From the IMG/VR virus record IMGVR_UViG_3300045988_176499: a stretch of DNA of 40,514 bases; one strand, 5' to 3'. Positions within the stretch are counted from its first letter, which is position 1. Each line of letters starts with the position of its first letter. This DNA comes from a virus. The position numbers and the translations under genes were made by a program. Under the pieces are notes generated by a model. It was not told the DNA's origin. It worked only from the letters and a program-made list of their open reading frames with translations, and did no database searches. Shown in pieces: positions 7,006-25,046 of this stretch.

Positions 7006-7290
7006 TTAATCTTCGTTTGGTTCCTCGATCATGTCTATCAGCGCAGTCAACGCTGCAACATATTCCGGATTGCTCAAGCTTTCAGCATCAGAGATATCAT
7101 CCGGATCCGCGTCTTCGGTTAATCCTAAATCTTCGAGCGTGATTTCCACGCTGAATTTGCGTTTCCCGCCAATGTGCACCAGATCACCGTTATCATCCAG
7201 CTGTGCAAGATACTCCACAGTGCTTCCATCCACATAATGTGGGCAACGGCCAATGTACTCGTCCATTTCGTTCAGTGTGATTTTTTTCAT
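7006..7290 (-). CDS. Hypothetical acidic protein, 94 aa
   Basis: ATG with an AAAGGAGAG RBS. Confidence 0.4.
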   Translation of the reverse strand: MKKITLNEMDEYIGRCPHYVDGSTVEYLAQLDDNGDLVHIGGKRKFSVEITLEDLGLTEDADPDDISDAESLSNPEYVAALTALIDMIEEPNED

Positions 7291-7411
7291 TTTTTTGCTC
7301 TCCTTTACTTTTTTTTGCGTGTCCGGGCTTGTGACCGGGCTGCCGCATTACCAGCCCCGGAGGGCTGTCACTCTGCGTGTGTGGTGTCGAGGCGGTAGAT
7401 ATCATAAGTGC

Positions 7412-7696
7412 TCACGGCGTTTCCTCCTTTGGCTCATCATAGACGAGGTAGATGTCTCCGCTGCCCTCCCAGCTTACGGTTTCAATGGCTTTAAGCTCGG
7501 TGACGAGCCATGCGGCTTCCCCCATTGCTGCGGCGACATACTTGGCTGGAACCCTCCTGCGCTTTGTAGGGCGGCTCCATCCCCGGGATTTTACTTCGCC
7601 GTAGGTGATGTTTTTTTTCAAGGCCAGGAATGCTGCGGGGCTCTGAGCGTCCATGCCGACGGTGATGCCGTCGAACTGCGTCATGTAGAGGTGCAT
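7412..7696 (-). CDS. Hypothetical protein, about 95 aa
   Basis: ORF 7412..7726 trimmed to the start at 7696 (MHLYMTQFDG). That start overlaps the stop of the upstream gene (AAGTGATGCAC). Confidence 0.35.
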   Translation of the reverse strand: MHLYMTQFDGITVGMDAQSPAAFLALKKNITYGEVKSRGWSRPTKRRRVPAKYVAAAMGEAAWLVTELKAIETVSWEGSGDIYLVYDEPKEETP

Positions 7697-8064
7697 CACT
7701 TGTCGCTCGCCTCCTCTGCGGGCCACCAGCCGATGTCGTCGGCGACGGCTGCCATGTAGTCGGCGAGGGCCATCTCACTGCGCGCCAGCTCGATCTCTCC
7801 GTCCTCGGTGTCCTGGGTGATCCATGCGCGCATGTGCTCACCGGATGCGATAGCTTTTCGGACGGCTGCGGCATCCTCTCTATACTCCTCTACGGCGTAC
7901 TCTTCATAGATCCACTCGCTTTTCATCCGCTCCATCTGGTATGCCAGATCGTCCGCGCTCTGGATGCGGTAGGTGCTCTCGCGGTTGCACTCGCCGTGCT
8001 CTGGATCCCATGTGGTAAAGTGCAGCATGGTGTACGGGATTTTTTCTGCTTTTTGGGTTTTCAT
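7696..8064 (-). CDS. Hypothetical protein, 122 aa
   Basis: ATG with a GGAAAGGG RBS. Confidence 0.4.
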   Translation of the reverse strand: MKTQKAEKIPYTMLHFTTWDPEHGECNRESTYRIQSADDLAYQMERMKSEWIYEEYAVEEYREDAAAVRKAIASGEHMRAWITQDTEDGEIELARSEMALADYMAAVADDIGWWPAEEASDK

Positions 8065-8448: not shown

Positions 8449-9139
8449 CCTCCTTGACTTTTGGCGGAGCCTATGGTATCATATAGGTACCGTGTCCGCC
8501 TCTGTGGATTCGGCCGGCCATCGCATCCGGGAGTCAGCTGTCCAGGCCTTTTACCCGGTGCGATGGTCTTTTTTTGTCCGCCGGACTGTCTGCCCGGCTG
8601 ACACATATAGTATAGCACGTCTGCGGGCGGTTGTCAAGTATTTTCGAAAATTTTCTTCGATACGCTTTGGCGTGCCCTCATAACAAAACGTTATGGAGTG
8701 ATTTTTTTTATGTTTTTGGGTAGTAGGGTGGGGGAAGTATACCATATATGGCGCGTAGCGGGTTCGCCTGTATCCGCACTTTTTTGGGGCTTTACCTGGC
8801 ATATCGCCGTCCGCGCTCCGGCGACTGTGAGTGTACACGGCGTATGCAGAGGTACATATGCGCGCTTGTATATGGTATAGCAGTCCGGCTGAGTGGTAGG
8901 TGTAGGCGATATGCGGTGCTATGTATGCATGATATACAGTGATATACATATGTATATGTATATATATGCATATAGAGGAGCAGTGAATTAAACAAAATGC
9001 GCGTTTTGTTTAATTGGAAACCCGTGTGGTATTTGTGCCATATGGTCTACCCTTGCCCCGAATAGGGGGGCGCTTCGGGACGGGAGGTAGATATACCTAT
9101 CTATCCTCACGCCAACAACGAAACAGAATCAAAGAAGAT

Positions 9140-9600
9140 AAGTTGGATAGATGAATGAATATATATTCTGATTATCTTCATACCGGAAAAGAGAAAGCCA
9201 AATAGAAAAAAAGGAGAAGAGAGAAGAAGAACATAGAAATACCTATACCACCTCACACCGAGAATAAAATAGAATCAAAGAGGATAAGGGGGGGGAAGAT
9301 AGGATGGAGAGTAGTAGTATATATATAATATATATAATATAGGGGTGTGGGGGGATAAGATAGACCCTTGAACCATAAGGGGGGTAGGAAAATAATAGGG
9401 GGGTATGGGGGATTAGAAAAAAGAGTGGGGAGACGGAAGAAAGAGGGGGAAAAAGGTAAGAGATAAGGAGCGGGTGAGATGAGATAAAAAGAACCGCCCT
9501 GAATGACAGAGCGGTTTGGGTGGAAGATGTAAGGGCGAGAAGCTTTTTTTGTAGGGGTAACAGAAAAGACCGAGGGAAAAGGGGAAGTTTGCGGTTGATG
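9140..9600. repeat. Polypurine tract on the plus strand of about 460 bp, inside the 1.6-kb non-coding region 8449-10067
   Basis: The plus strand is almost exclusively A/G with many GGA and AAGGAG-like motifs. ORFs in the track across this region are low-complexity. Confidence 0.6.
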
Positions 9601-9776
9601 TATACCACACAAGTCATCTAAAAATGGTGGGGAATCTCCCCGCCGCTCGGTGGACCTGGGTTTTTCAACCAGCCCGATTTGTGATGTCCGACACCACCAT
9701 AGGCATTATACCACAAAAAATACCACTTTGTCAATGACGTCTGATATACCAGATGTCGGGTGATTGCTGTTTTGGA

Positions 9777-9820
9777 TAACTTGCTTGCAACTTGAAACCA
9801 ACTTAAAACCAACTTGCAAC
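9777..9820. repeat. Four tandem 11-bp repeats of form CAACTTG(A/C)AAC, followed by TGTGGAAC
   Basis: Read directly: taacttgcttg, caacttgaaac, caacttaaaac, caacttgcaac. The period is close to one helical turn. Confidence 0.5.
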
Positions 9821-10067
9821 CTGTGGAACGGAGAAGCTATTGGGTTGGATGGTTCCTGTTCGAAGTGGTATCCGGTTTATTGGTCTATGTGGGAATGGAC
9901 GAATGAAAGGAAAGCATACCAGCAGGACGCATTGGGGGAATCTGAGCAGGATTTGAGCTTGTGGCAATAGCTCTTTTTGAACGCATCAATGTCGAAAACT
10001 GTGCCGGTGAAGATGTCACATGGCGGGCCGAACAACTCAACGAGGGTGGAACAGATTTCGGAATGTG

Positions 10068-10424
10068 TCAGAGGGTGGTACATTTGAATGGCTCCTTTCT
10101 ACGGTAATTCTGTCTGGATTCGTACATACGAAGGATTTGTGGCATGTAATGGCAGGCAACGAAATATTCGACGCGGCAACCGCGGGCGATATCCCAGTCT
10201 TTCGCGAAGAAGATGACGTCTGCGGTGGTCATGCGTTTCAGGGAATCTGCCAGACAGCAGACCGGCAGAGGGCGTTCGCCTGATGTGAAGGGGAGCGGGT
10301 TGATGACCGTAATGTCTTCGTTTGGGAATCTGGACTTGACACGGGCGATGGCGCGATAACGGGTTTTCACGATTTCTTTGTGGGTTTTGCCTCGCATGGG
10401 CATGGAAATGAACAGGTTGATCAT
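10068..10424 (-). CDS. DUF4406-like protein (nucleoside 2-deoxyribosyltransferase-like fold), about 118 aa
   Basis: ORF 10068..10502 trimmed to ATG at 10424 (MINLFISMPMRG...), with a GAGGAGG RBS embedded in the poly-Glu codons of the upstream gene. The pattern M.NLFISMPMRG ... WDIARGCRVEYFVA matches the DUF4406 consensus. Confidence 0.5.
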   Translation of the reverse strand: MINLFISMPMRGKTHKEIVKTRYRAIARVKSRFPNEDITVINPLPFTSGERPLPVCCLADSLKRMTTADVIFFAKDWDIARGCRVEYFVACHYMPQILRMYESRQNYRRKEPFKCTTL

Positions 10425-10795
10425 TCTTCTTCCTCCTCGATTGGCGTGAACCAAAATTTCTTTTTGCATTCGTGACAGTTTGTTCTGCATGTTGCAGTGC
10501 AATCAAATACGCGTACACAGGCTCTCGGTAAATCAGATGGATAATTGTAGTTTGGGAACAGCTTTTTGAACTCCGACAACCGCGTTTTCACCGGATGCTC
10601 TTTCGCCCATTCTTCGACAATTTTAACAATTTCATTTGGTTGTCTTCGGGCAAAAGTGAAACACGTTGTGATTTCGCCATCTCGTATTTTCTCATGTATA
10701 TTGCAGCCAGCACATTTACTTAAGTTATACTGATTTTTCTCTCTAAAATAATCGCACATTCTTTCTTTTTCTCTCAAAAATTCAATTGCATCCAT
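10421..10795 (-). CDS. Cys-rich small protein ending in EEEEE (poly-Glu tail)
   Basis: ORF trimmed to ATG at 10795 (MDAIEFLREK...) with an AAAGGAG RBS. The Cys cluster CVRVFDCTATCRTNCHEC is near the C-terminus, which ends PIEEEEE. Confidence 0.5.
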   Translation of the reverse strand: MDAIEFLREKERMCDYFREKNQYNLSKCAGCNIHEKIRDGEITTCFTFARRQPNEIVKIVEEWAKEHPVKTRLSEFKKLFPNYNYPSDLPRACVRVFDCTATCRTNCHECKKKFWFTPIEEEEE

Positions 10796-10815
10796 GTTTT
10801 TACTCCTTTGTTTGC

Positions 10816-11052
10816 TTATTCGTTTGCTGATTCGTTTGCGTATTTCGGCTGTTTTGGCAGCGGCATCCATGCGATAACACGCGTTCTGGTTCCGTTTGCA
10901 ACTTCGCCGCCCCAATGCCCGTTGTACTGATATCCTATCCCGTATGTTTCAAACATGCAGTTGTAGCTCCCATATCTGAAATATTCATACCAACACAGCA
11001 CGTCTTCCCCGTTTGGCGGCAATCGCTCTTCAACACTAATCCATTCGCTCAT
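10816..11052 (-). CDS. DUF551-domain protein, 78 aa
   Basis: The N-terminal WISVEERLP motif is typical of phage DUF551. Its start is embedded in the GAA repeat of the upstream gene. Confidence 0.55.
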   Translation of the reverse strand: MSEWISVEERLPPNGEDVLCWYEYFRYGSYNCMFETYGIGYQYNGHWGGEVANGTRTRVIAWMPLPKQPKYANESANE

Positions 11053-11363
11053 TCTTCTTCTTCCCCCTCCCTTTGTTCCGCGCTGCTACAAAAACCATCA
11101 TACGATGCGTAAAATTCTACATAACGCCGGCAACAATATTCTTCAATCCAATCATCCCAGTATCGAAATTTACAATCCCGGCAGCGAATTACTGGAACAG
11201 CATCAACTGTTGGCTGGGCATCAATTACGCGTCTAATGCCGGGCGTCAGAAAATCTGGCTCTGTGCATTCATACGTGCACCGATCTGATTTCGAAGGACA
11301 CTCTTTACATATGTCGTATGTCTCAAATGCTGATTTTAGTTTGTCTGCATCAATCAGTCTCAT
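11049..11363 (-). CDS. Cys-rich protein ending in EEEE, about 104 aa
   Basis: ORF 11049..11405 trimmed to ATG at 11363 (MRLIDADKL...). The RBS GGAGGAAGAAGA is formed by the poly-Glu codons of the upstream gene. Confidence 0.5.
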   Translation of the reverse strand: MRLIDADKLKSAFETYDICKECPSKSDRCTYECTEPDFLTPGIRRVIDAQPTVDAVPVIRCRDCKFRYWDDWIEEYCCRRYVEFYASYDGFCSSAEQREGEEEE

Positions 11364-11656
11364 TCTTCTTCCTCCAAATCCATTTTTGCTCCACAGTTGG
11401 GGCAAAATTTATAATTGACTCCCCAGACTGTCCGATATCCGCAAATAGAGCAATCCTCACACTCATTCATGAATGGGGTTTGAGTCGGATTCCATCGTCC
11501 ATGCACAACCGGTGCGACATCAGCGGCGGGCGTATACTCTGGGTAGGAAATCATCTTGATTGCATCCTGAATAGTTCCCTTTTCTTTGCGGTATTCTCTA
11601 TTACCGAGACTTCTGAGCAGTTCAACCGTTTTTTCACGCTCAATGTATTCAGCCAT
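11360..11656 (-). CDS. Zinc-ribbon protein ending in LEEEE, about 98 aa
   Basis: Start MAEYIEREK with a GAGGAGGGAG RBS. Zinc-ribbon pattern CEDCSICG...CPNCGAKM. It shares the motif ADVAPVVHGRW with the gene at 11049-11363 (QPTVDAVPVIRCR). Confidence 0.5.
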   Translation of the reverse strand: MAEYIEREKTVELLRSLGNREYRKEKGTIQDAIKMISYPEYTPAADVAPVVHGRWNPTQTPFMNECEDCSICGYRTVWGVNYKFCPNCGAKMDLEEEE

Positions 11657-11847
11657 TGTCTCCCTCCTCACAGTAAAATCTGGAAATGTCCTTCATACTC
11701 CAGCGAACCGTATCCGAAATTGTGGAGCATAGATACCCACCTTCCATGTGTACGGACTTCACGCCATAGACTTGCGGATTCGTGAAATGCCCAAACTGTT
11801 TTTTCATGTGTTCCTCAAATTCGTCCTTGAAAATAATGGTCAGCTTC
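11649..11847 (-). CDS. Hypothetical protein, about 66 aa
   Basis: ORF 11649..11912 trimmed to ATG at 11847 (MKLTIIFKDEF...). That start overlaps the stop of an upstream zinc-ribbon remnant reading frame. Confidence 0.35.
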
Positions 11848-11850
11848 ATT

Positions 11851-12000
11851 TCATCGCCTCCAATGCTTTCTCCGCCTCTACATTCGTCATTTCCGCCCCG
11901 CAGTTGGGGCAAAAGAAAAACTCTTCGGTGTTGTTATCGCAGCAGTTCCACGTTTTCCCACATACGGAACAGGTTGTTTCTGAAAGTGCCAGGTGCGTCT
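11851..12000 (-). pseudogene. Start-less 50-codon zinc-ribbon reading frame (...CSVCGKTWNCCDNNTEEFFFCPNCGAEMTNVEAEKALEAMK*)
   Basis: My own translation of the minus strand. The frame is bounded upstream by TAG and has no in-frame ATG, GTG or TTG. It carries the same CPNCGA signature as the gene at 11360-11656. Confidence 0.3.
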
Positions 12001-12150
12001 ATCCAGTGTCCTCGTCGCTTTTCGATTCGCCCGTCAACAACGGATCAGAGCATCTCGGATGCTTTCAGGCATACGCTTCGCTTCCACCAGCTTACGCTGT
12101 TTGTATCCGCAATTTTCTGCAAGCCGATAATGACGGAATTGCGTTCTGTT

Positions 12151-12387
12151 TCAGGCATTGCTTTCCACTTCCCTTGTGATAGACTGTTTTTGCTTTTTGT
12201 AGAACCTCTGTGCTTTTTTGCGTTTATAGCGCATTTTTGCGGTTGTTTTGTTCTTGTCTACACAAATTGTCTCGACCGTTTCAAAATTGCGATTGCAGGT
12301 CTGGCAGAGGCGGCGGCGATAAACCTCCCAGCCGTAGGAAATTGTGTTGACGACCTTTGTCTGAGCGCCGCAGTTTGGGCAGTCCAT
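12151..12387 (-). CDS. Zinc-ribbon protein, 78 aa (CPNCG...CQTC), with a basic C-terminus
   Basis: ATG with a GGTGAGG RBS. It has a CxxC...CxxC pattern. Confidence 0.5.
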   Translation of the reverse strand: MDCPNCGAQTKVVNTISYGWEVYRRRLCQTCNRNFETVETICVDKNKTTAKMRYKRKKAQRFYKKQKQSITREVESNA

Positions 12388-12396
12388 CTGTGCGCC

Positions 12397-12894
12397 TCAC
12401 CGGATTTGAAGGTTCCGGTTTTCGACCAGCGCGGCGCCTGGGACTTCCTGACCGAGCTGGATCGCCTGCTTGATGAGCGTCTTGTCGATTTTGACGGAGA
12501 CGACTTCGGATTTGAAGACGGCTGGCACCGCGGCTTCGTCGTCGATCTGAATCGCTTTGGATTTGCGGAAGCTGATAACGACCTTCGGCGTTTCGAGCTT
12601 CGCTTTGCCGACGGCATCCAGACTGTTTTTCAGAAGCTGCTTCAGGTAGTCGTTCCGGCGATCCAGCGATTCGCGGCGCTTCTTCAGCGTTTTTTCCTCT
12701 TCTTTGATGCTTTCTGCCATTGCAGCGGCGTTTTTGATAAAGCAGGCGACTGCCTCCGCCTTCTGGTCAAACGACCCTTCCATTTCGTCGAGGCGTTCCG
12801 CGCCGGTGATTTCGCCGGTCTCTTCATCGATCTCAAGGTTGTCCAGCACATCCAAATATTCCTTCGTGATTTCATACAACGTTTCCATGTTCAA
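12397..12894 (-). CDS. Siphovirus Gp157-family protein
   Basis: The N-terminus MNMETLYEITKEYLDVLDNLEIDEETGEI matches the Sipho_Gp157 signature (M.LYEL...Y..L). AAGGAGAA RBS. It sits in the replication module. Confidence 0.6.
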   Translation of the reverse strand: MNMETLYEITKEYLDVLDNLEIDEETGEITGAERLDEMEGSFDQKAEAVACFIKNAAAMAESIKEEEKTLKKRRESLDRRNDYLKQLLKNSLDAVGKAKLETPKVVISFRKSKAIQIDDEAAVPAVFKSEVVSVKIDKTLIKQAIQLGQEVPGAALVENRNLQIR

Positions 12895-12912
12895 ATTCTC
12901 CTTTGTTGATTT

Positions 12913-13425
12913 TCATATTTTCTTTTTGTTTTGGTTCAGGTAATCCGCCATGGTCTGGATGGCGGTTTTGACGTCTTCCCGCCAGTCTCCGGGATAACAG
13001 CCCCAGTCACTTTGAATGCTTTCATCATCAACCATCTGTCCGTCGATATAGAGCAGGTAGGTCAGGCGGCGTTGGTTGTCTTCGAGCATGTCCAGCGCGT
13101 CAAGCAGGTTTTTGAGCCGGGCTTTCAGCGCGCTGCTTGCTTCGAGCAGCCTGGCTGCCTGACGCGCCGCAACCTTGCTTTCGCGGCTTTTGAGCAGCTG
13201 ACGGATTTCCGCCTTGTATTCATCCCGTCGGCGAGCGACGGCGGCAAAGGCGCGGAGCGCACGTTTCACGTCGGTCGGCGTGATTGTTAGCGTGCGATTT
13301 GCCGACTGGATATCTTTTTCGAGTCTTGCCTCGCGTTTTTCTTGCGCAGATAGCTCTGGTTTGCGCTGAGAGCCACCGAGGCGCGTGTTTTCCATACGGG
13401 ATAACCGAATACTACTCTGCGCCAT
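12913..13425 (-). CDS. Hypothetical coiled-coil protein, about 170 aa
   Basis: ORF 12913..13434, with ATG at 13425 (MAQSSIR) preferred because of its GGTGA RBS. Confidence 0.4.
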   Translation of the reverse strand: MAQSSIRLSRMENTRLGGSQRKPELSAQEKREARLEKDIQSANRTLTITPTDVKRALRAFAAVARRRDEYKAEIRQLLKSRESKVAARQAARLLEASSALKARLKNLLDALDMLEDNQRRLTYLLYIDGQMVDDESIQSDWGCYPGDWREDVKTAIQTMADYLNQNKKKI

Positions 13426-13807
13426 TCGATTCACCTGCTGCCTCTCTGGCCTTTCTGGCGATGCTTTCCCGTCTGGCCGCCAGTGCCTTTTTGCCTCTCT
13501 CTCTCTGCTTCTCCATTTGCTCCGGCGTCAGCACTTTTTTCGGCTGGCGGAAGCGGAGGCATTTTGACGGAAACTCAAACTCTGCAATGGTGTAACCGTT
13601 GGCAAATTCCTTGACAGCGGTCTGCTTGTAAAGGCAGTTGGGGTTCAGCATATACGACCGGAGCAGCTTGATGATGCGCGGGTTCGTCGTGCGCATTTTG
13701 ACAAGTTTCTCTTTTTCTGTCCACTGCATGGTCGTCACGCGGAGAACGCTGCTTTGCTTCTGGCCGCGAGCAATGCCCTCTATTGGGCGGTTGACGTTTT
13801 TTGGCAT
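13412..13807 (-). CDS. Hypothetical protein, about 131 aa
   Basis: ORF trimmed to ATG at 13807 (MPKNVNRPIEG...) with a GGAG RBS. Confidence 0.4.
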   Translation of the reverse strand: MPKNVNRPIEGIARGQKQSSVLRVTTMQWTEKEKLVKMRTTNPRIIKLLRSYMLNPNCLYKQTAVKEFANGYTIAEFEFPSKCLRFRQPKKVLTPEQMEKQRERGKKALAARRESIARKAREAAGESNGAE

Positions 13808-15059: not shown

Positions 15060-15385
15060 CAGACGTTCCCACTTTCAGATACCAGAAGTGGGAACAGTGA
15101 CGTGAAACATTTTTGGTGGTAAAGTAAAGAAAAAAGACTGATATTTATATTTTATAGAATAAATCATATATGTATAATCGTATGTGTTCCCACTGTTCCC
15201 ACTGTTCCCACTGTTTTTACCTCTCACGCGCGTACGCGTACACGCATACGCGTATAAATTATTTTTTTTGGTGGGAACGGTGGGAAAGTGGGAACAGAAT
15301 CGGGAAAAGTCTTGGCGCTCTAAGGATTTCGCTGTTCCCACTTTTGTTTCCTCTGTTCCGTTGTTCCCACTTTGTGGAACATCAG
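15060..15385. promoter_or_regulatory. Origin-like module A: about ten 9-bp iterons TGTTCCCAC/GTGGGAAC in both orientations, flanking an AT-rich stretch and an ACGCGT-rich alternating purine-pyrimidine core
   Basis: Read directly: (TGTTCCCAC)x3 at 15185-15211 and GTGGGAACG GTGGGAAAG TGGGAACAG at 15271-15297, with further copies at 15064, 15088, 15333 and 15353-15378. The AT-rich stretch is 15121-15180 and the core cacgcgcgtacgcgtacacgcatacgcgta is 15225-15254. Confidence 0.7.
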
Positions 15386-15621
15386 AAGGGCAATTCGTCT
15401 TCATTTGGCTCGTCGCCGTCTTCCTTGAAGATTACCATGACGCACCAAATTGAACGACCGTTGACCCGCTTTTTCTGCGTTGACCGGTTTTTTTTGCCGT
15501 CCACGCTTCGTATTGACACGCCCATTCGAACCGCCTCGTTGAACACATCTTTCGGCGAGAACCCCGCCTTTTTCAAGACTTCCTGCCACTTGCTGGAACA
15601 CATTTTGAGTATGGAACACAT
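15382..15621 (-). CDS. Standalone paralog of the primase C-terminal domain, ending DEPNEDELPF
   Basis: The sequence SKWQEVLKKAGFSPKDVFNEAVRMGVS...VNGRSIWCVMVIFKEDGDEPNEDELPF aligns with the last about 75 aa of the primase (SKWQEVLKKAGYSPKDVFAEAVRMGVS...VNGKKIRCIQVRFKDDFDDENGDELPF). The upstream in-frame MCS codons are module-B iterons, so the true start is uncertain. Confidence 0.5.
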   Translation of the reverse strand: MCSILKMCSSKWQEVLKKAGFSPKDVFNEAVRMGVSIRSVDGKKNRSTQKKRVNGRSIWCVMVIFKEDGDEPNEDELPF

Positions 15622-15928: not shown

Positions 15929-18019
15929 CTAAAATGGGAGTTCGTCTCCATTCTCGTCGTCGAAATCATCTTTGAATCTCACTTGAATGCACCGAATTTT
16001 TTTGCCGTTTACGCGGACGGATGCAGTTGAATAACGCCGTTCAGTGTCAGTGACCCATTGAGAAACGCCCATCCGGACAGCTTCTGCAAATACATCCTTT
16101 GGGGAATATCCGGCTTTTTTCAGAACCTCCTGCCATTTGCTTGCAATCAGCCAGCAGATGTTTCCATCCCAGCGGCCGAAGGTTTCTTTTGTCGGGCTTT
16201 CGGTCTGCGCGCCTTCAAAGCTCTTGGCGTTCTGGACAATCCATTCCTTGATGTACTCGACGCCCTTTTTGTCACGGTCGGCTTCTTCGCTGGTGGTCAG
16301 GAGCGGGAGGACATCCGCTTCGGTCAGGGCGGTCTCCGGATTGTCCGGAAAGAGGACTTGCTGCGCCGCTTCGCTTGTCGCCAGCAGGAGCGAGACGGAA
16401 AGGAGCTGCTTGTCGAGGTAACCGCCTGCGCGGAGCTGGGGCCGGACTTCTGCCGCACGCTGACGGATGGATTCGACGTTGGCGGGGGATTTCAGCCAGC
16501 TTGTCCAGCGGCGGCCGGCGTGACCGTAGTTTGCCGCGATGTCTTCGACAATTTTGGCGCCGTGTTCTGCGCCGTATGTTTCGCCGGTGGCGTCGACGGA
16601 GATGATGCGGTTTTCCGCGCCGGTGCAGACGTTGTCGTCGAGGATTGCCTGTTCGCCTGTCGTGATGGCGATGGAGAGCCAGCGGGATTCCGAGGCGATG
16701 CCGCCGTCCTTCGTGCCTCTGGTTTTGCTTTTGCCGTTGGACAGCATGTAAATCACGTTTTCAAGCACGTCTTTGTTCTGGACTTCCTGCAATTCGTCAA
16801 GCATGAGCGGAAGGTTGCAGAGGAACGCCGCCGTTTTTTCCATGCCGACGGCGGTTGACGCCATGGATTTTACAAGCTCCTGCGGGAGCCCCCAGACGGA
16901 CGCCGCCAGCATAAGAAATACGGTTTTGCCTGTGCCGGACTTGCCGAACAGGTGAACGCCGAAGCCGAGGTATTTCGCCTTTGCCAGCAGGGGCGACGCC
17001 AGCGACGCGGCTACCGCGAAACGCGCGGCTCTGGATGCCGCCATGGTCTGTGCGGCGACCGCCTGCCATTTGTCCGGATCGCCGTGCGGACGGCGGACGG
17101 CTTGCAGCATGGTGTTTGTCGTCGAACTGCGGGGCAGACAGACAATTGACGAGGAAAACGGGACGAACTCTGTCTCGAACCATCCGAGGCGCGAGGATGC
17201 CGGGGAGACCGGCTGATTGTGCAGCCTTAGAGCGAACGCAACCGCCATCTGCCGGTAATCCGTGATGGTAACGCCGTAGCCGCTGAGCGCCTTGACGAGC
17301 TGCGGGTCTGTCAGCGTCCGGCGGTCGAACGGCTCCTCGCGATGCTTCAATCCGTCGTGAAAACGGAGGACGACCGCGTGCAGCCCCGTGTCTTCATCGG
17401 CGTAGACGCCCTGAATCTGGATGCCGGTGTGACAAATGTATTGCATCTGCGGCTGACCTTTTGGCGGCGTGAAGATGAAATAGACGCCATTTTCCGCCCA
17501 GATGAAGCCCTCATCAATCTTGGAGTGTTCCGGGATATCGATTGCGGACGGCTCGAACGGCGCGGACAGCGCGGTGATTTCTTTGTCGAGCTGATCACGC
17601 TTTTCGCGGAGCTGCTGCGCCTTTTCCGTTTCGCCGGAGACCTCTGCGCGGAGGATATCCTCCGCCATGGCATCCCACGCCGCCTCCGCCGCCTTGAGCT
17701 TCGCGCGGTTCTGCCAGTAGTCCGTCTCTGCTTTCGTCGCCGGTTTGTCAAACTCGACACCCAGATGCAGCGCTTCGTTCAACTTTTTCGCCGCGTCATA
17801 AGGGGTGCTTCCGTCCATCTGGGCGGCGAGGGCGATGGTGTCGCCGTGCCACCCGCAGGCGAAACAGTAGAAGCCGTCTTTATAAATGCGCATGGACGGA
17901 TGCTCGTCTTTCCCGTGAAACGGGCAGCTGACCATATTCGCCTTGTTGGCGTGCAGCCCGTAGAGCGCGAGCACATCTGCGGGGTCGGCGCGGTCTTTGA
18001 CCGCCTCGAAAACCGTCAT
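15929..18019 (-). CDS. DNA primase/helicase (N-terminal CHC2 zinc finger, C-terminal P-loop NTPase), ending DDENGDELPF
   Basis: CPFHGKDEHPSMRI...FYCFACGWHGD is a DnaG-type CHC2 zinc-binding motif. Walker A is HLFGKSGTGKT. The iteron origin lies directly downstream, as in Sfi21-type replication modules. Confidence 0.8.
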   Translation of the reverse strand: MTVFEAVKDRADPADVLALYGLHANKANMVSCPFHGKDEHPSMRIYKDGFYCFACGWHGDTIALAAQMDGSTPYDAAKKLNEALHLGVEFDKPATKAETDYWQNRAKLKAAEAAWDAMAEDILRAEVSGETEKAQQLREKRDQLDKEITALSAPFEPSAIDIPEHSKIDEGFIWAENGVYFIFTPPKGQPQMQYICHTGIQIQGVYADEDTGLHAVVLRFHDGLKHREEPFDRRTLTDPQLVKALSGYGVTITDYRQMAVAFALRLHNQPVSPASSRLGWFETEFVPFSSSIVCLPRSSTTNTMLQAVRRPHGDPDKWQAVAAQTMAASRAARFAVAASLASPLLAKAKYLGFGVHLFGKSGTGKTVFLMLAASVWGLPQELVKSMASTAVGMEKTAAFLCNLPLMLDELQEVQNKDVLENVIYMLSNGKSKTRGTKDGGIASESRWLSIAITTGEQAILDDNVCTGAENRIISVDATGETYGAEHGAKIVEDIAANYGHAGRRWTSWLKSPANVESIRQRAAEVRPQLRAGGYLDKQLLSVSLLLATSEAAQQVLFPDNPETALTEADVLPLLTTSEEADRDKKGVEYIKEWIVQNAKSFEGAQTESPTKETFGRWDGNICWLIASKWQEVLKKAGYSPKDVFAEAVRMGVSQWVTDTERRYSTASVRVNGKKIRCIQVRFKDDFDDENGDELPF

Positions 18020-18594: not shown

Positions 18595-19173
18595 TTAGAA
18601 CGGGAGGTCGTCGTCTGTGTCGTCTGTTGGCTGGAAGCTGCCCGGCGCCGGAGCGGCAACCGGCTGATTTTTCAGCGGACGGCGTTCCGGCATCTTGAAT
18701 TTGCCGTTTCGGATATCGTCGACCGAGTGTGGGTTGACCAGCTCGATGAGCCACGAGGTTTTGCCGGTGTTTTTGTTCAGCCATTCAAACTCACGGGCGA
18801 GGATGCCGATCTTCTTTTCCTTGAGCGTGTTTTCGTCCCAGTTCCAGTGATAGCCGGGGTTCGATTCTTCGACGCACGCCATGAAGTTGTTAAACGCGCG
18901 TTTGGTATAATCGTCTTTTTCGGAACCGTCATCCTTCGGGAGCCAGAGTTTGACGTTGCCGCGCCATTTTTTGTTGTCGCTGCTCTGGGACTTATAGTCC
19001 TTCATGTAGAAATCCTTCTGGTCACCTTCGGCGATATCGACCATGACGTTCATGAGTTCGCTGCCGTTGTAGTTCTCGATGGCGACGCCTTTGATGACGG
19101 CGACGTAACCGCCGACCGGCAGCGGCTCAAACGCCTGAATGCGCTGGGGTGCATAGTTCTTAAACTGTCTCAT
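18595..19173 (-). CDS. DUF669-like phage protein with an SSB-like acidic C-terminal tip (TDDTDDDLPF)
   Basis: AGGAGGAA RBS. Its position next to the Sak4-like ATPase is typical for DUF669. The C-terminal DDDLPF mimics the bacterial SSB tip DDDIPF. Confidence 0.5.
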   Translation of the reverse strand: MRQFKNYAPQRIQAFEPLPVGGYVAVIKGVAIENYNGSELMNVMVDIAEGDQKDFYMKDYKSQSSDNKKWRGNVKLWLPKDDGSEKDDYTKRAFNNFMACVEESNPGYHWNWDENTLKEKKIGILAREFEWLNKNTGKTSWLIELVNPHSVDDIRNGKFKMPERRPLKNQPVAAPAPGSFQPTDDTDDDLPF

Positions 19174-23993: not shown

Positions 23994-25046
23994 ATGGCAA
24001 CAGCACGAAAACAGGACGATGGACGCTGGGCTGTACAAGTCTATGTCCGGCGGGATATCGACGGGAAGCAGCGGCGGAAACGCATCTATGGGCGCACGAA
24101 ACGCGAGGCGGAGCTTGCTGCGGCACAATGGGAAGTGAAGAAGCAGCACAACGTCGGGGCGGGAAATCTGACGGTTGGGAAGGCGATTGACGATTACATT
24201 GAAGAGCGTTCAAATATTTTGTCACCGTCCAGCATTCGAACATATAAGCGAATCGCCAGAAATATCGAATCATGGTTTTTAATGCTTCCGCTGGAATCGG
24301 TCGAGGCGGAAGACATTCAAAAATTGGTCAACCGGTATGCCGCAACACATGCGCCAAAAACGGTTAAGTCGCAAGCCGATCTGATCATCGCGGTCTGGAA
24401 AAAAGCGAATGACGGAAGAGTCCCGAAGATTGTTCTGCCGAGATTGGAGCGGAAAGAAGTCTCCGTTCCGGAGCCAGAAGACATTGAAACCCTGCTTCAA
24501 TTCGTCAAGGGCACGGACTATGAAATCCCGATTTTGCTGGCGTCTCACATGGGGCTGCGCCGGGAAGAAATCTGCGCTTTGACATGGACAGATATCAACT
24601 TTGAGGAAAAAAGCCTGACAGTGAAAAGCGCACTTGTGAAGGACGACAAAAACCAGTGGGTCAAGAAAACGACGAAGGCGGAAGCGTCAAAACGGGTCTT
24701 GCTAATCCCTGAGCGGGTGTTGAATGTGCTGGACGAAAAACGTGAACCGACGGGGAATGTATGCAAGTTGAAACCCAGTACGCTGACCAGCAAACTGCCG
24801 GGGATTATTCAGCGTGCGGGGCTTCCGCCATTCACGATTCACACGCTGCGGCACTACTATGCATCGGTGCTTTTATCCATCGGGGTTCCAATCAATTATG
24901 TTGCAGATGAGCTTGGACACGCAACAAATAGTATGGCGGAGCGGGTTTATGGGCATATTATGTCCGGTGCAAAAACGCAAATTCGTCGCAAAATCCTCAC
25001 GCACTTCAACGGGAACGGTGAACAGGAAAGTGAACAGCAAAATTGA
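23994..25046 (+). CDS. int: Tyrosine site-specific integrase
   Basis: 350 aa. The C-terminal catalytic region contains HTLRHYYASVL (H-x-x-R), LGHATNSMAERVY and a Tyr. The N-terminal region is SAM-like. It is adjacent to a tRNA-derived attP region. Confidence 0.9.
   Translation: MATARKQDDGRWAVQVYVRRDIDGKQRRKRIYGRTKREAELAAAQWEVKKQHNVGAGNLTVGKAIDDYIEERSNILSPSSIRTYKRIARNIESWFLMLPLESVEAEDIQKLVNRYAATHAPKTVKSQADLIIAVWKKANDGRVPKIVLPRLERKEVSVPEPEDIETLLQFVKGTDYEIPILLASHMGLRREEICALTWTDINFEEKSLTVKSALVKDDKNQWVKKTTKAEASKRVLLIPERVLNVLDEKREPTGNVCKLKPSTLTSKLPGIIQRAGLPPFTIHTLRHYYASVLLSIGVPINYVADELGHATNSMAERVYGHIMSGAKTQIRRKILTHFNGNGEQESEQQN

Follow-up and report, generated by a model that had tools for sequence, protein, structure and literature searches.

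Gene pairs with ATGA or TGATG overlaps and a Shine-Dalgarno (SD) sequence inside the upstream gene occur widely, and of the 14 pairs put to the test 13 proved to be strictly coupled (Huber et al. 2019, PMC6728339). Junctions of this kind also connect small genes in the virus genome IMGVR_UViG_3300045988_176499, whose 40,514 nt were analysed as a whole and are referred to here as the window. The genome is that of a temperate phage with an early operon of tightly packed small genes, in which three genes for Cys-rich proteins, termed A (10421-10795), C (11049-11363) and D (11360-11656), end in the glutamate runs EEEEE, EEEE and LEEEE, respectively. It is very probable that in these poly-Glu tails the frame of the upstream gene runs through the translation-initiation region of the gene that follows.

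The junctions behind A, C and D share with the described ATGA/TGATG pairs the 4-nt overlap and the strong SD in the upstream 3' end 5-10 nt before the start, as well as a Firmicute-type setting with heavy SD usage and operon gene chains. They differ from them in that the AAGAAGA spacer gives rise to a conspicuous Glu run and in that termination-reinitiation coupling at the ATGA sites of the window may only be inferred, namely from the published coupling (PMC6728339); mechanistically there is no difference.

A related effect is the enrichment of NNA-UGA, which the portion of Weber et al. (2020, PMC7246954) considered here attributes to overlapping AUG starts. As at the present junctions, the A of the last sense codon is also the A of the next AUG, so that the neighbouring gene shapes the C-terminus. 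In that portion of the study the effect concerns the last codon, whereas in the window it extends over four to six residues via the SD and the spacer and follows a frame rule.

The poly-Glu tails resemble the SSB tip (…DDDIPF) in being short, acidic and probably disordered C-terminal extensions. In contrast to the SSB tip they lack a hydrophobic tip, are not conserved with the protein and are interchangeable with Arg-Arg or Gly-Gly tails. In temperate phages the joints of mosaic modules lie at gene boundaries, and early regions of the lambdoid nin type contain many small overlapping genes, as laid out in the Hendrix, Juhala and Botstein literature. The early region of the window is similar in its dense small genes, ATGA overlaps, sharp block ends near gene boundaries and swapped neighbours, and differs in that the boundary is resolved to about 12 nt before the start and that intragenic shuffling occurs at a hinge within C and D. 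With the boundary at this position, the final residues of the protein encoded upstream form part of the downstream module. The locus is thus an instance of a known phenomenon with a textbook mechanism, to which it adds the phase rule and direct evidence of a tail that migrates together with the downstream gene.

Junction geometry and the frame rule

At all three genes the poly-Glu end coincides with an ATGA stop/start overlap (10421-10424 for A, 11049-11052 for C and 11360-11363 for D), as the initial annotation had reported; its description of the three genes as consecutive has to be amended, since the DUF551 gene B (10816-11052) lies between C and A. The 16-mer GGAGGAAGAAGAATGA is found exactly at 10421-10436 and 11360-11375 and with one mismatch at 11049-11064. 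In the junction of A with the next gene (10421-10436, minus strand) GGAGG at 10432-10436 is followed by the spacer AAGAAGA and by ATGA, which comprises the start codon (10422-10424) and the stop codon (10421-10423). The junction of D with C (11360-11375, minus strand) is built in the same way with GGAGG at 11371-11375. In both, the SD core GGAGG is encoded by (I/L)-E-E codons and lies 7 nt before the ATG. The junction of C with B (11049-11071, minus strand) consists of GGGAGGGGG at 11063-11071, the 10-nt spacer AAGAAGAAGA and ATGA. It had been proposed that the GAA codons double as the ribosome-binding site (RBS). The tail does hold the SD, though in the form of GGAGG, and the GAA run was rejected as the SD itself since its codons constitute the translated 7-nt spacer.

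The tail of the 66-aa gene upstream of D (11649-11849, minus strand), CEEGDNG, is likewise composed of the SD of D (GAGGAGG, 11663-11669), a spacer and ATGGCTGA, the two genes overlapping by 8 nt.

In the window, GGAGGAAGAAGAATGA has three matches, located solely at the stops of A, C and D, compared to 0.02 expected, and none of 100 shuffles reached three. It is therefore next to impossible that the three tails arose by chance, or that they merely reflect composition or wrongly called open reading frames (ORFs). All that could be put forward in favour of this is a coding strand that is generally rich in purines; against it stand, besides the shuffles, the many homologs of the ORFs and the recurrence of the same three poly-Glu tails in the related contigs L318 and L319.

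For a wider comparison 191 related viral loci were retrieved and their genes called by a coding-potential script, and junction statistics were derived from 1,835 unique same-strand junctions of related phage contigs irrespective of gene family. Among the last five residues, the share of Glu is 26-29% for ATGA overlaps, 25-28% for 1-nt overlaps and 10-13% where the next start is at least 6 nt off, compared to 8% in protein bodies. Leaving out the three families and the window itself, at least three Glu among the last five residues occurred in 67 of 584 junctions at a distance of -4 to +5 and in 14 of 868 elsewhere (Fisher p = 1e-15). The outcome was the same when starts were redefined as the first ATG of the ORF, using no SD information (p = 6e-22), which excludes circularity through SD-guided start calling.

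The enrichment depends on the reading frame. Where GGAGG is present, ATGA junctions most often have a spacing of 7 nt (103 of 225), at which the genetic code places GAG, hence Glu, at position -4. GGAGG at a spacing of 6 or 9 reads Gly-Gly and at a spacing of 8 Arg-Arg.

The host is presumably Firmicute-type and strongly SD-dependent. As downstream starts overlap upstream stops, the last four to five codons of the upstream gene accommodate both the SD GGAGG and a purine-rich spacer of 7 nt. Given the ATGA geometry and the 7-nt spacing, GGAGG is readable only as xxG-GAG-Gxx, forcing Glu, the spacer AAGAAGA is read as GAA-GAA-GA(A), adding further Glu, and the last codon by necessity ends in A. 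The tail may thus be regarded as an unstructured, tolerated appendage whose sequence would be set by the RNA-level needs of the next gene, and which evolves along with the start of that gene and not with the protein that carries it. Selection presumably also acts on the purine richness of the spacer. On the whole, the tails are a real but ordinary by-product of tightly packed and probably coupled genes.

Several observations weigh against this explanation or limit its reach. The SD strictly forces a single Glu only; outside the families a complete EEEE end was seen at just one of 362 ATGA junctions, and the AAGAAGA spacer was found in the junction set solely at the junctions of the window itself. 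The complete run therefore needs an extra cause, be it that a single junction sequence was inherited or copied, or that purine-rich spacers are preferred. The SD in front of the DUF551 gene is suboptimal, with GGAGG at 13 nt from the ATG and GGGGG alone at 10 nt. Moreover, with a strong SD the downstream genes might just as well be initiated independently. The junction counts come from a home-made gene caller applied to related gut-phage contigs and are not phylogenetically independent. Finally, the C-terminus of distant A relatives has stayed acidic (...E-V-E-(E/D)), also in a few members whose next called gene is at least 15 nt away, and here a contribution at the protein level may exist.

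Viral contigs from many different environments also contain the exact 16-mer GGAGGAAGAAGAATGA, in at least 120 stretches. Of the 131 occurrences among the matches listed, 111 supply the ...EEEE end of an open frame of at least 40 codons, the proteins concerned being unrelated, and in 108 the ATG of the 16-mer opens an ORF of at least 40 aa. Some unrelated environmental viral contigs contain tiny Cys-rich ORFs of 23-45 aa (e.g. MICIKHKYICQLGVQECPECKEEEE) that are flanked on both sides by the 16-mer junction (L211 2468-2557, L214, L218 and L222; also L198, L210 and L289).

Tails among homologs and their association with the downstream gene

The initial annotation had considered both translational coupling and functional acidic tails. 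According to the latter explanation the tails would serve the protein, by DNA mimicry, partner binding as in SSB or solubility, and their overlap with the RBS would be incidental. Tails of the D family are indeed net acidic or Gly-rich and seldom basic, and the distant A relatives mentioned above keep their ...EVE(E/D) end at times without an overlapping start. Functional acidic tails probably do exist in the phage itself, as three proteins of the replication region have genuine SSB-tip-like D(E/D)LPF ends.

These ends, all on the minus strand, belong to a 47-aa ORF (15382-15525, ...DEPNEDELPF), a primase-like protein with DUF927, CHC2 zinc finger and HTH_56 (15929-18019, ...DDENGDELPF) and a 192-aa protein without a Pfam match (18595-19173, ...TDDTDDDLPF). 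Unlike the poly-Glu tails, they are probably functional.

The behaviour of the tails in homologs renders a protein-level function of the poly-Glu ends of A, C and D highly improbable. In D relatives the conserved sequence stops at CPNCGAKM(D) and is followed by DLEEEE, DGGDSDAAD, DEKEAVYD, DIKDGGDNDAVD, ESEEG, DGGTT, ME or others. In C relatives FCSxAE(R/Q) is followed by KEE, KDGGDG, KEKNNERMD or GEEEE, and the AERKEE tail also occurs behind a DUF551 domain (P0156) and behind non-zinc C-termini (P0157). The core of the A family (118 homologs) extends to FW(L/F)TPI, after which come EEEEE, EEEEK, EEE, EEA or D alone. Poly-Glu is not a trait of the protein families. Most homologs lack it, some of them having no tail at all after the core, an absence that the initial annotation had named as contrary to its proposal; yet a Glu-rich tail goes together with a downstream start that overlaps the gene or directly adjoins it.

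Wherever the DNA of a family member was inspected, the tail was found to include the SD of the following gene. Thus, in the ...AKMDGGDSDAAD proteins, which carry the DGGDSDAAD tails, GGAGG encodes Gly-Gly, and 8 nt further, still within the tail, comes the next ATG.

The substitution pattern is likewise at variance with a functional acidic tail. In the multi-residue tails of the close relatives of A, Glu is replaced by Lys (AAA/AAG) 24 times and by Asp never, all 14 Asp residues in A-relative tails stemming from the deletion variant with the one-residue tail, which ends in TPID. Such a pattern speaks more for a constraint that keeps the RNA rich in purines than for a demand on the charge of the protein. 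It is suggestive and not decisive, since a transition suffices to turn Glu into Lys whereas Asp takes a transversion, and the transition bias adds to the 24:0 ratio. In the AlphaFold2 (AF2) model of C the tail has a pLDDT of about 52 compared to about 87 for the core hairpin, the tail confidence in the model of D is low as well, and no hydrophobic tip is conserved.

The matter is decided by natural variants in which the neighbouring gene has been lost or exchanged. Fourteen cluster representatives of the A family end in ...TPID. In the three contigs inspected for one of them (P0257), a deletion has left no more than the last ~17 codons of the deoxyribosyltransferase-like gene following A. The poly-Glu, the SD and the ATGA are missing along with it, and the gene that comes next is the same as in the window. 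Other A relatives keep the SD in ATT-GAG-GAG-G and end in EEE-TAA-A-ATG or in EEEEE with ATGA, before differing genes. The number of Glu in these tails tracks the position of the next start, and the junction of A is identical through ATGAT ahead of two different downstream genes.

Conversely, one and the same junction is found on unrelated proteins. A ...KM(D/N)LEEE(E/K) tail occurs behind three different ribbons (L318, L319 and L321) and is always followed by ATGAGACTGATTGA (MRLID...), and REGEEEE is always followed by the DUF551 start MSEWISVEERLP (L318 and L319). In front of MAEYIE... genes, four unrelated proteins end in ...RRADNG, ...RRAENG, ...GRADNG or, in the window, ...EEGDNG. These ends represent the SD of the downstream gene, its spacer and ATGGCTGA, and a shift of the SD by 1 nt turns Arg-Arg into Glu-Glu at the same type of junction. 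The tail sequence therefore tracks the downstream gene and not the protein, contrary to what the functional-tail explanation would predict.

In L321 (491-608), a 20-codon remnant of an MRLID gene was observed behind the DLEEEE junction and upstream of an unrelated 124-aa gene, which is a gene replacement that left the junction intact.

The same boundary is visible in the mosaic DNA conservation. A homology block at 11488-11668 (minus strand) comprises the SD and spacer of D and its whole N-terminal module up to the HGRW hinge; it shares 93-98% DNA identity with L001, L002, L005, L007, L011 and L024 and ends abruptly. It starts at 11668, 12 nt before the ATG of D, and the upstream genes, which differ, all end in ...(R/E)(R/G)xDNG. 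A second example is a 30-nt island at 11850-11880 (minus strand; …GAGAAAGCATTGGAGGCGATGAAATGA), encoding …EKALEAMK plus the overlapping start, which is 97-100% identical in ~37 loci and closes a different protein there (…THEEAEKALEAMK before the stop), while the genes flanking it are conserved in far fewer loci (~7).

Taking the deletions, the swapped neighbours and the block ends together, the last residues of the upstream protein are evolutionarily part of the initiation region of the downstream gene, and the tail is inherited with that gene. The assumption that the tails are translation-initiation or coupling elements is thus strongly supported, the coupling itself being deduced from the described pairs, and the assumption of functional acidic tails is disfavoured.

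For the annotation of densely packed, SD-dependent genomes this implies that the RBS of the next gene can determine the last four to six residues of a protein, and that these residues appear as Glu, Gly-Gly or Arg-Arg depending on the phase and can travel with the next gene in evolution. Since the RBS can dictate C-terminal residues, tails should be checked against the junction geometry before a protein-level function is assigned to them.

Modular zinc-ribbon genes and recombination at the junctions

The initial annotation had grouped A, C, D, a start-less zinc-ribbon frame and a 78-aa zinc-ribbon protein into one paralogous family, which the profile comparison with hhalign rejected. Between D and C only the 12-residue hinge was aligned (probability 2%), A and C reached 6.7%, A being unrelated to both C and D by profile comparison, and the D family and the 78-aa protein have nine aligned residues, the CPNCGAxxx knuckle alone. 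The latter protein (12151-12387, minus strand; PF22811, 36.3 bits, E = 5.2e-9) is by its profile match an NrdR-type neighbour outside the C/D group. The hinge shared by C and D (VDAVPVIRCR and ADVAPVVHGRW) is real.

Gene D (minus strand, 98 aa) encodes an MAEYIERE N-terminal helical module, the ADVAPVVHGRW hinge, a CxxC...CPNCGAKM zinc ribbon and the tail DLEEEE. Gene C (minus strand, 104 aa) encodes an N-terminal MRLIDAD module, the PTVDAVPVIRC hinge, a Cys-rich C-terminal module up to FCSSAEQ and the tail REGEEEE. Gene A (minus strand, 124 aa, Cys-rich) has a core ending in CKKKFWFTPI and the tail EEEEE. The predicted zinc ribbon of D has two CxxC knuckles (CEDCSIC…CPNC), for which the AF2 model suggests beta-strands with a pLDDT of 81-88. 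The ribbon of D gave generic zinc-ribbon matches only (Pfam 22.4 vs a cut-off of 24.8, PDB profile E of at least 0.02, Foldseek E of at least 0.5).

No assignment was obtained for A in Pfam, PHROG, NCBIfam and PDB, and the searches of Pfam, PHROGs and NCBIfam for A, C and D yielded sub-threshold generic zinc ribbons or PHROGs of unknown function only. Profile searches against PDB gave generic ribbons throughout (best E = 0.01). The AF2 models are of moderate confidence (pLDDT 72 and 69), and Foldseek retrieved nothing from PDB at E <= 0.001.

The start-less frame had been placed at 11851-12000, which is out of frame; it is real and of D type, with the correct coordinates 11846-11998 (minus strand; …CSVCGK…FCPNCGAEM…EKALEAMK). 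It matches the D-family ribbon profile with 24.6 bits (E = 4e-9), and together with the preceding ~160 nt in two other frames it has D-type length and ends (z = 4.8). It is probably the remnant of a decayed D-type gene that, as far as the letters tell, covered about 11846-12158 in three frames. An intact relative of its N-terminal part was not found among the loci, in which the ribbon and the 30-nt junction alone were matched.

More than 6,600 relatives of D were detected, often as several tandem copies per phage. Their N-terminal ~55 residues hardly vary, the DNA being 93-98% identical between phages, in contrast to hypervariable ribbon loops of differing length and sequence. Hybrids exist in which the N-terminal half of C is joined to the ribbon and tail of D (P0133), the reverse combination is present (P0145), or the N-terminal half of C is joined to DUF551 (P0156). 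The array therefore consists of modular, shuffled small proteins that presumably bind zinc, and not of one family.

This modularity raises the question of whether the junction cassettes, the PxVDxxPVV hinge and the CPNCGAKM-coding DNA serve as short homology linkers for shuffling, with poly-Glu kept as a recombination joint. Such a role would complement the RBS explanation and does not exclude it. It would account for the mosaic DNA conservation (~37-42 loci at junctions compared to none in the ribbon loop), for the sharp ends of the block (12 nt before the start, and the hinge) and for the three hybrids. It would also account for the junction of A being kept through ATGAT before two different genes and for L321, which keeps the junction plus the MRLID remnant. 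Likewise in its favour, two or more tail clusters were seen for 21 of 52 ribbon-loop clusters, and two or more loop clusters for 16 of 58 tail clusters. However, the strict four-combination test of loop/tail reassortment failed, as no pair of loop clusters shared two tail clusters, and 16 nt are short for homologous recombination. The conservation of the junctions is furthermore expected from RBS function regardless, and breakpoints at gene boundaries also arise through selection against disrupted genes. We therefore consider a linker role possible, though doubtful. It is more doubtful still, and in our view unlikely, that the C/D array is a cassette-shuffling system that diversifies host-interaction or anti-defence proteins and whose poly-Glu tails are linker scars. 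Irrespective of this, the tails of A, C and D are very probably explained by the initiation regions of the genes that follow them, the mosaic joints in these phages are placed about 12 nt before start codons, and the analysis flags a large uncharacterised family of modular zinc-ribbon proteins in gut phages.

Gene layout and other features of the window

The early-region genes surrounding the poly-Glu array are all encoded on the minus strand. Their chain, linked by overlaps, runs from the NrdR-type ribbon via the disrupted ribbon gene, the 66-aa gene, D, C and the DUF551 gene to A and the deoxyribosyltransferase-like gene. Most genes of the window have AGGAGG or GGAGG at 5-10 nt before the start codon. 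A Gp157/Gam-like gene (12397-12888), the DUF927/CHC2 primase-like gene described above and an integrase gene (23994-25046) were also identified, and the rest of the window comprises structural genes. A search for tRNA genes detected none.

The gene after C was confirmed as DUF551 (gene B, minus strand, 78 aa; PF04448, 41.3 bits vs a cut-off of 22, E = 3e-10). Its 3' end at 10810-10844 carries a 12-nt tandem repeat of 2.9 copies encoding ...ANESANE, and in L319 the position of this repeat is expanded to ...KQTNQQTNKQTNKQTKE. The gene after A (10068-10424, minus strand, 118 aa) had been named DUF4406, which did not hold, since no Pfam family was matched at E <= 0.1. It is instead nucleoside 2-deoxyribosyltransferase-like (PHROG 355, E = 3.9e-9) and probably belongs to the same broad fold class as DUF4406.

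In a blastn search of positions 9800-13500 against annotated phage genomes a single 42-nt match was found, and a tblastn search with D yielded six faecal-virome records that are unannotated or hypothetical.

Two RNA motifs were predicted by Rfam on the minus strand, both above the gathering cut-off. A DUF3800-XI RNA motif at 9629-9676 (63.5 bits vs a cut-off of 37.8) lies just downstream of the array within 8950-9880, about 900 nt without a confident gene call; the adjoining ORFs at 8551-8949 and 9243-9617 gave no Pfam match. A type-P5 twister ribozyme is predicted at 7323-7377 (65.2 bits vs a cut-off of 37.6), between the small phage genes at 7006-7290 and 7412-7699.

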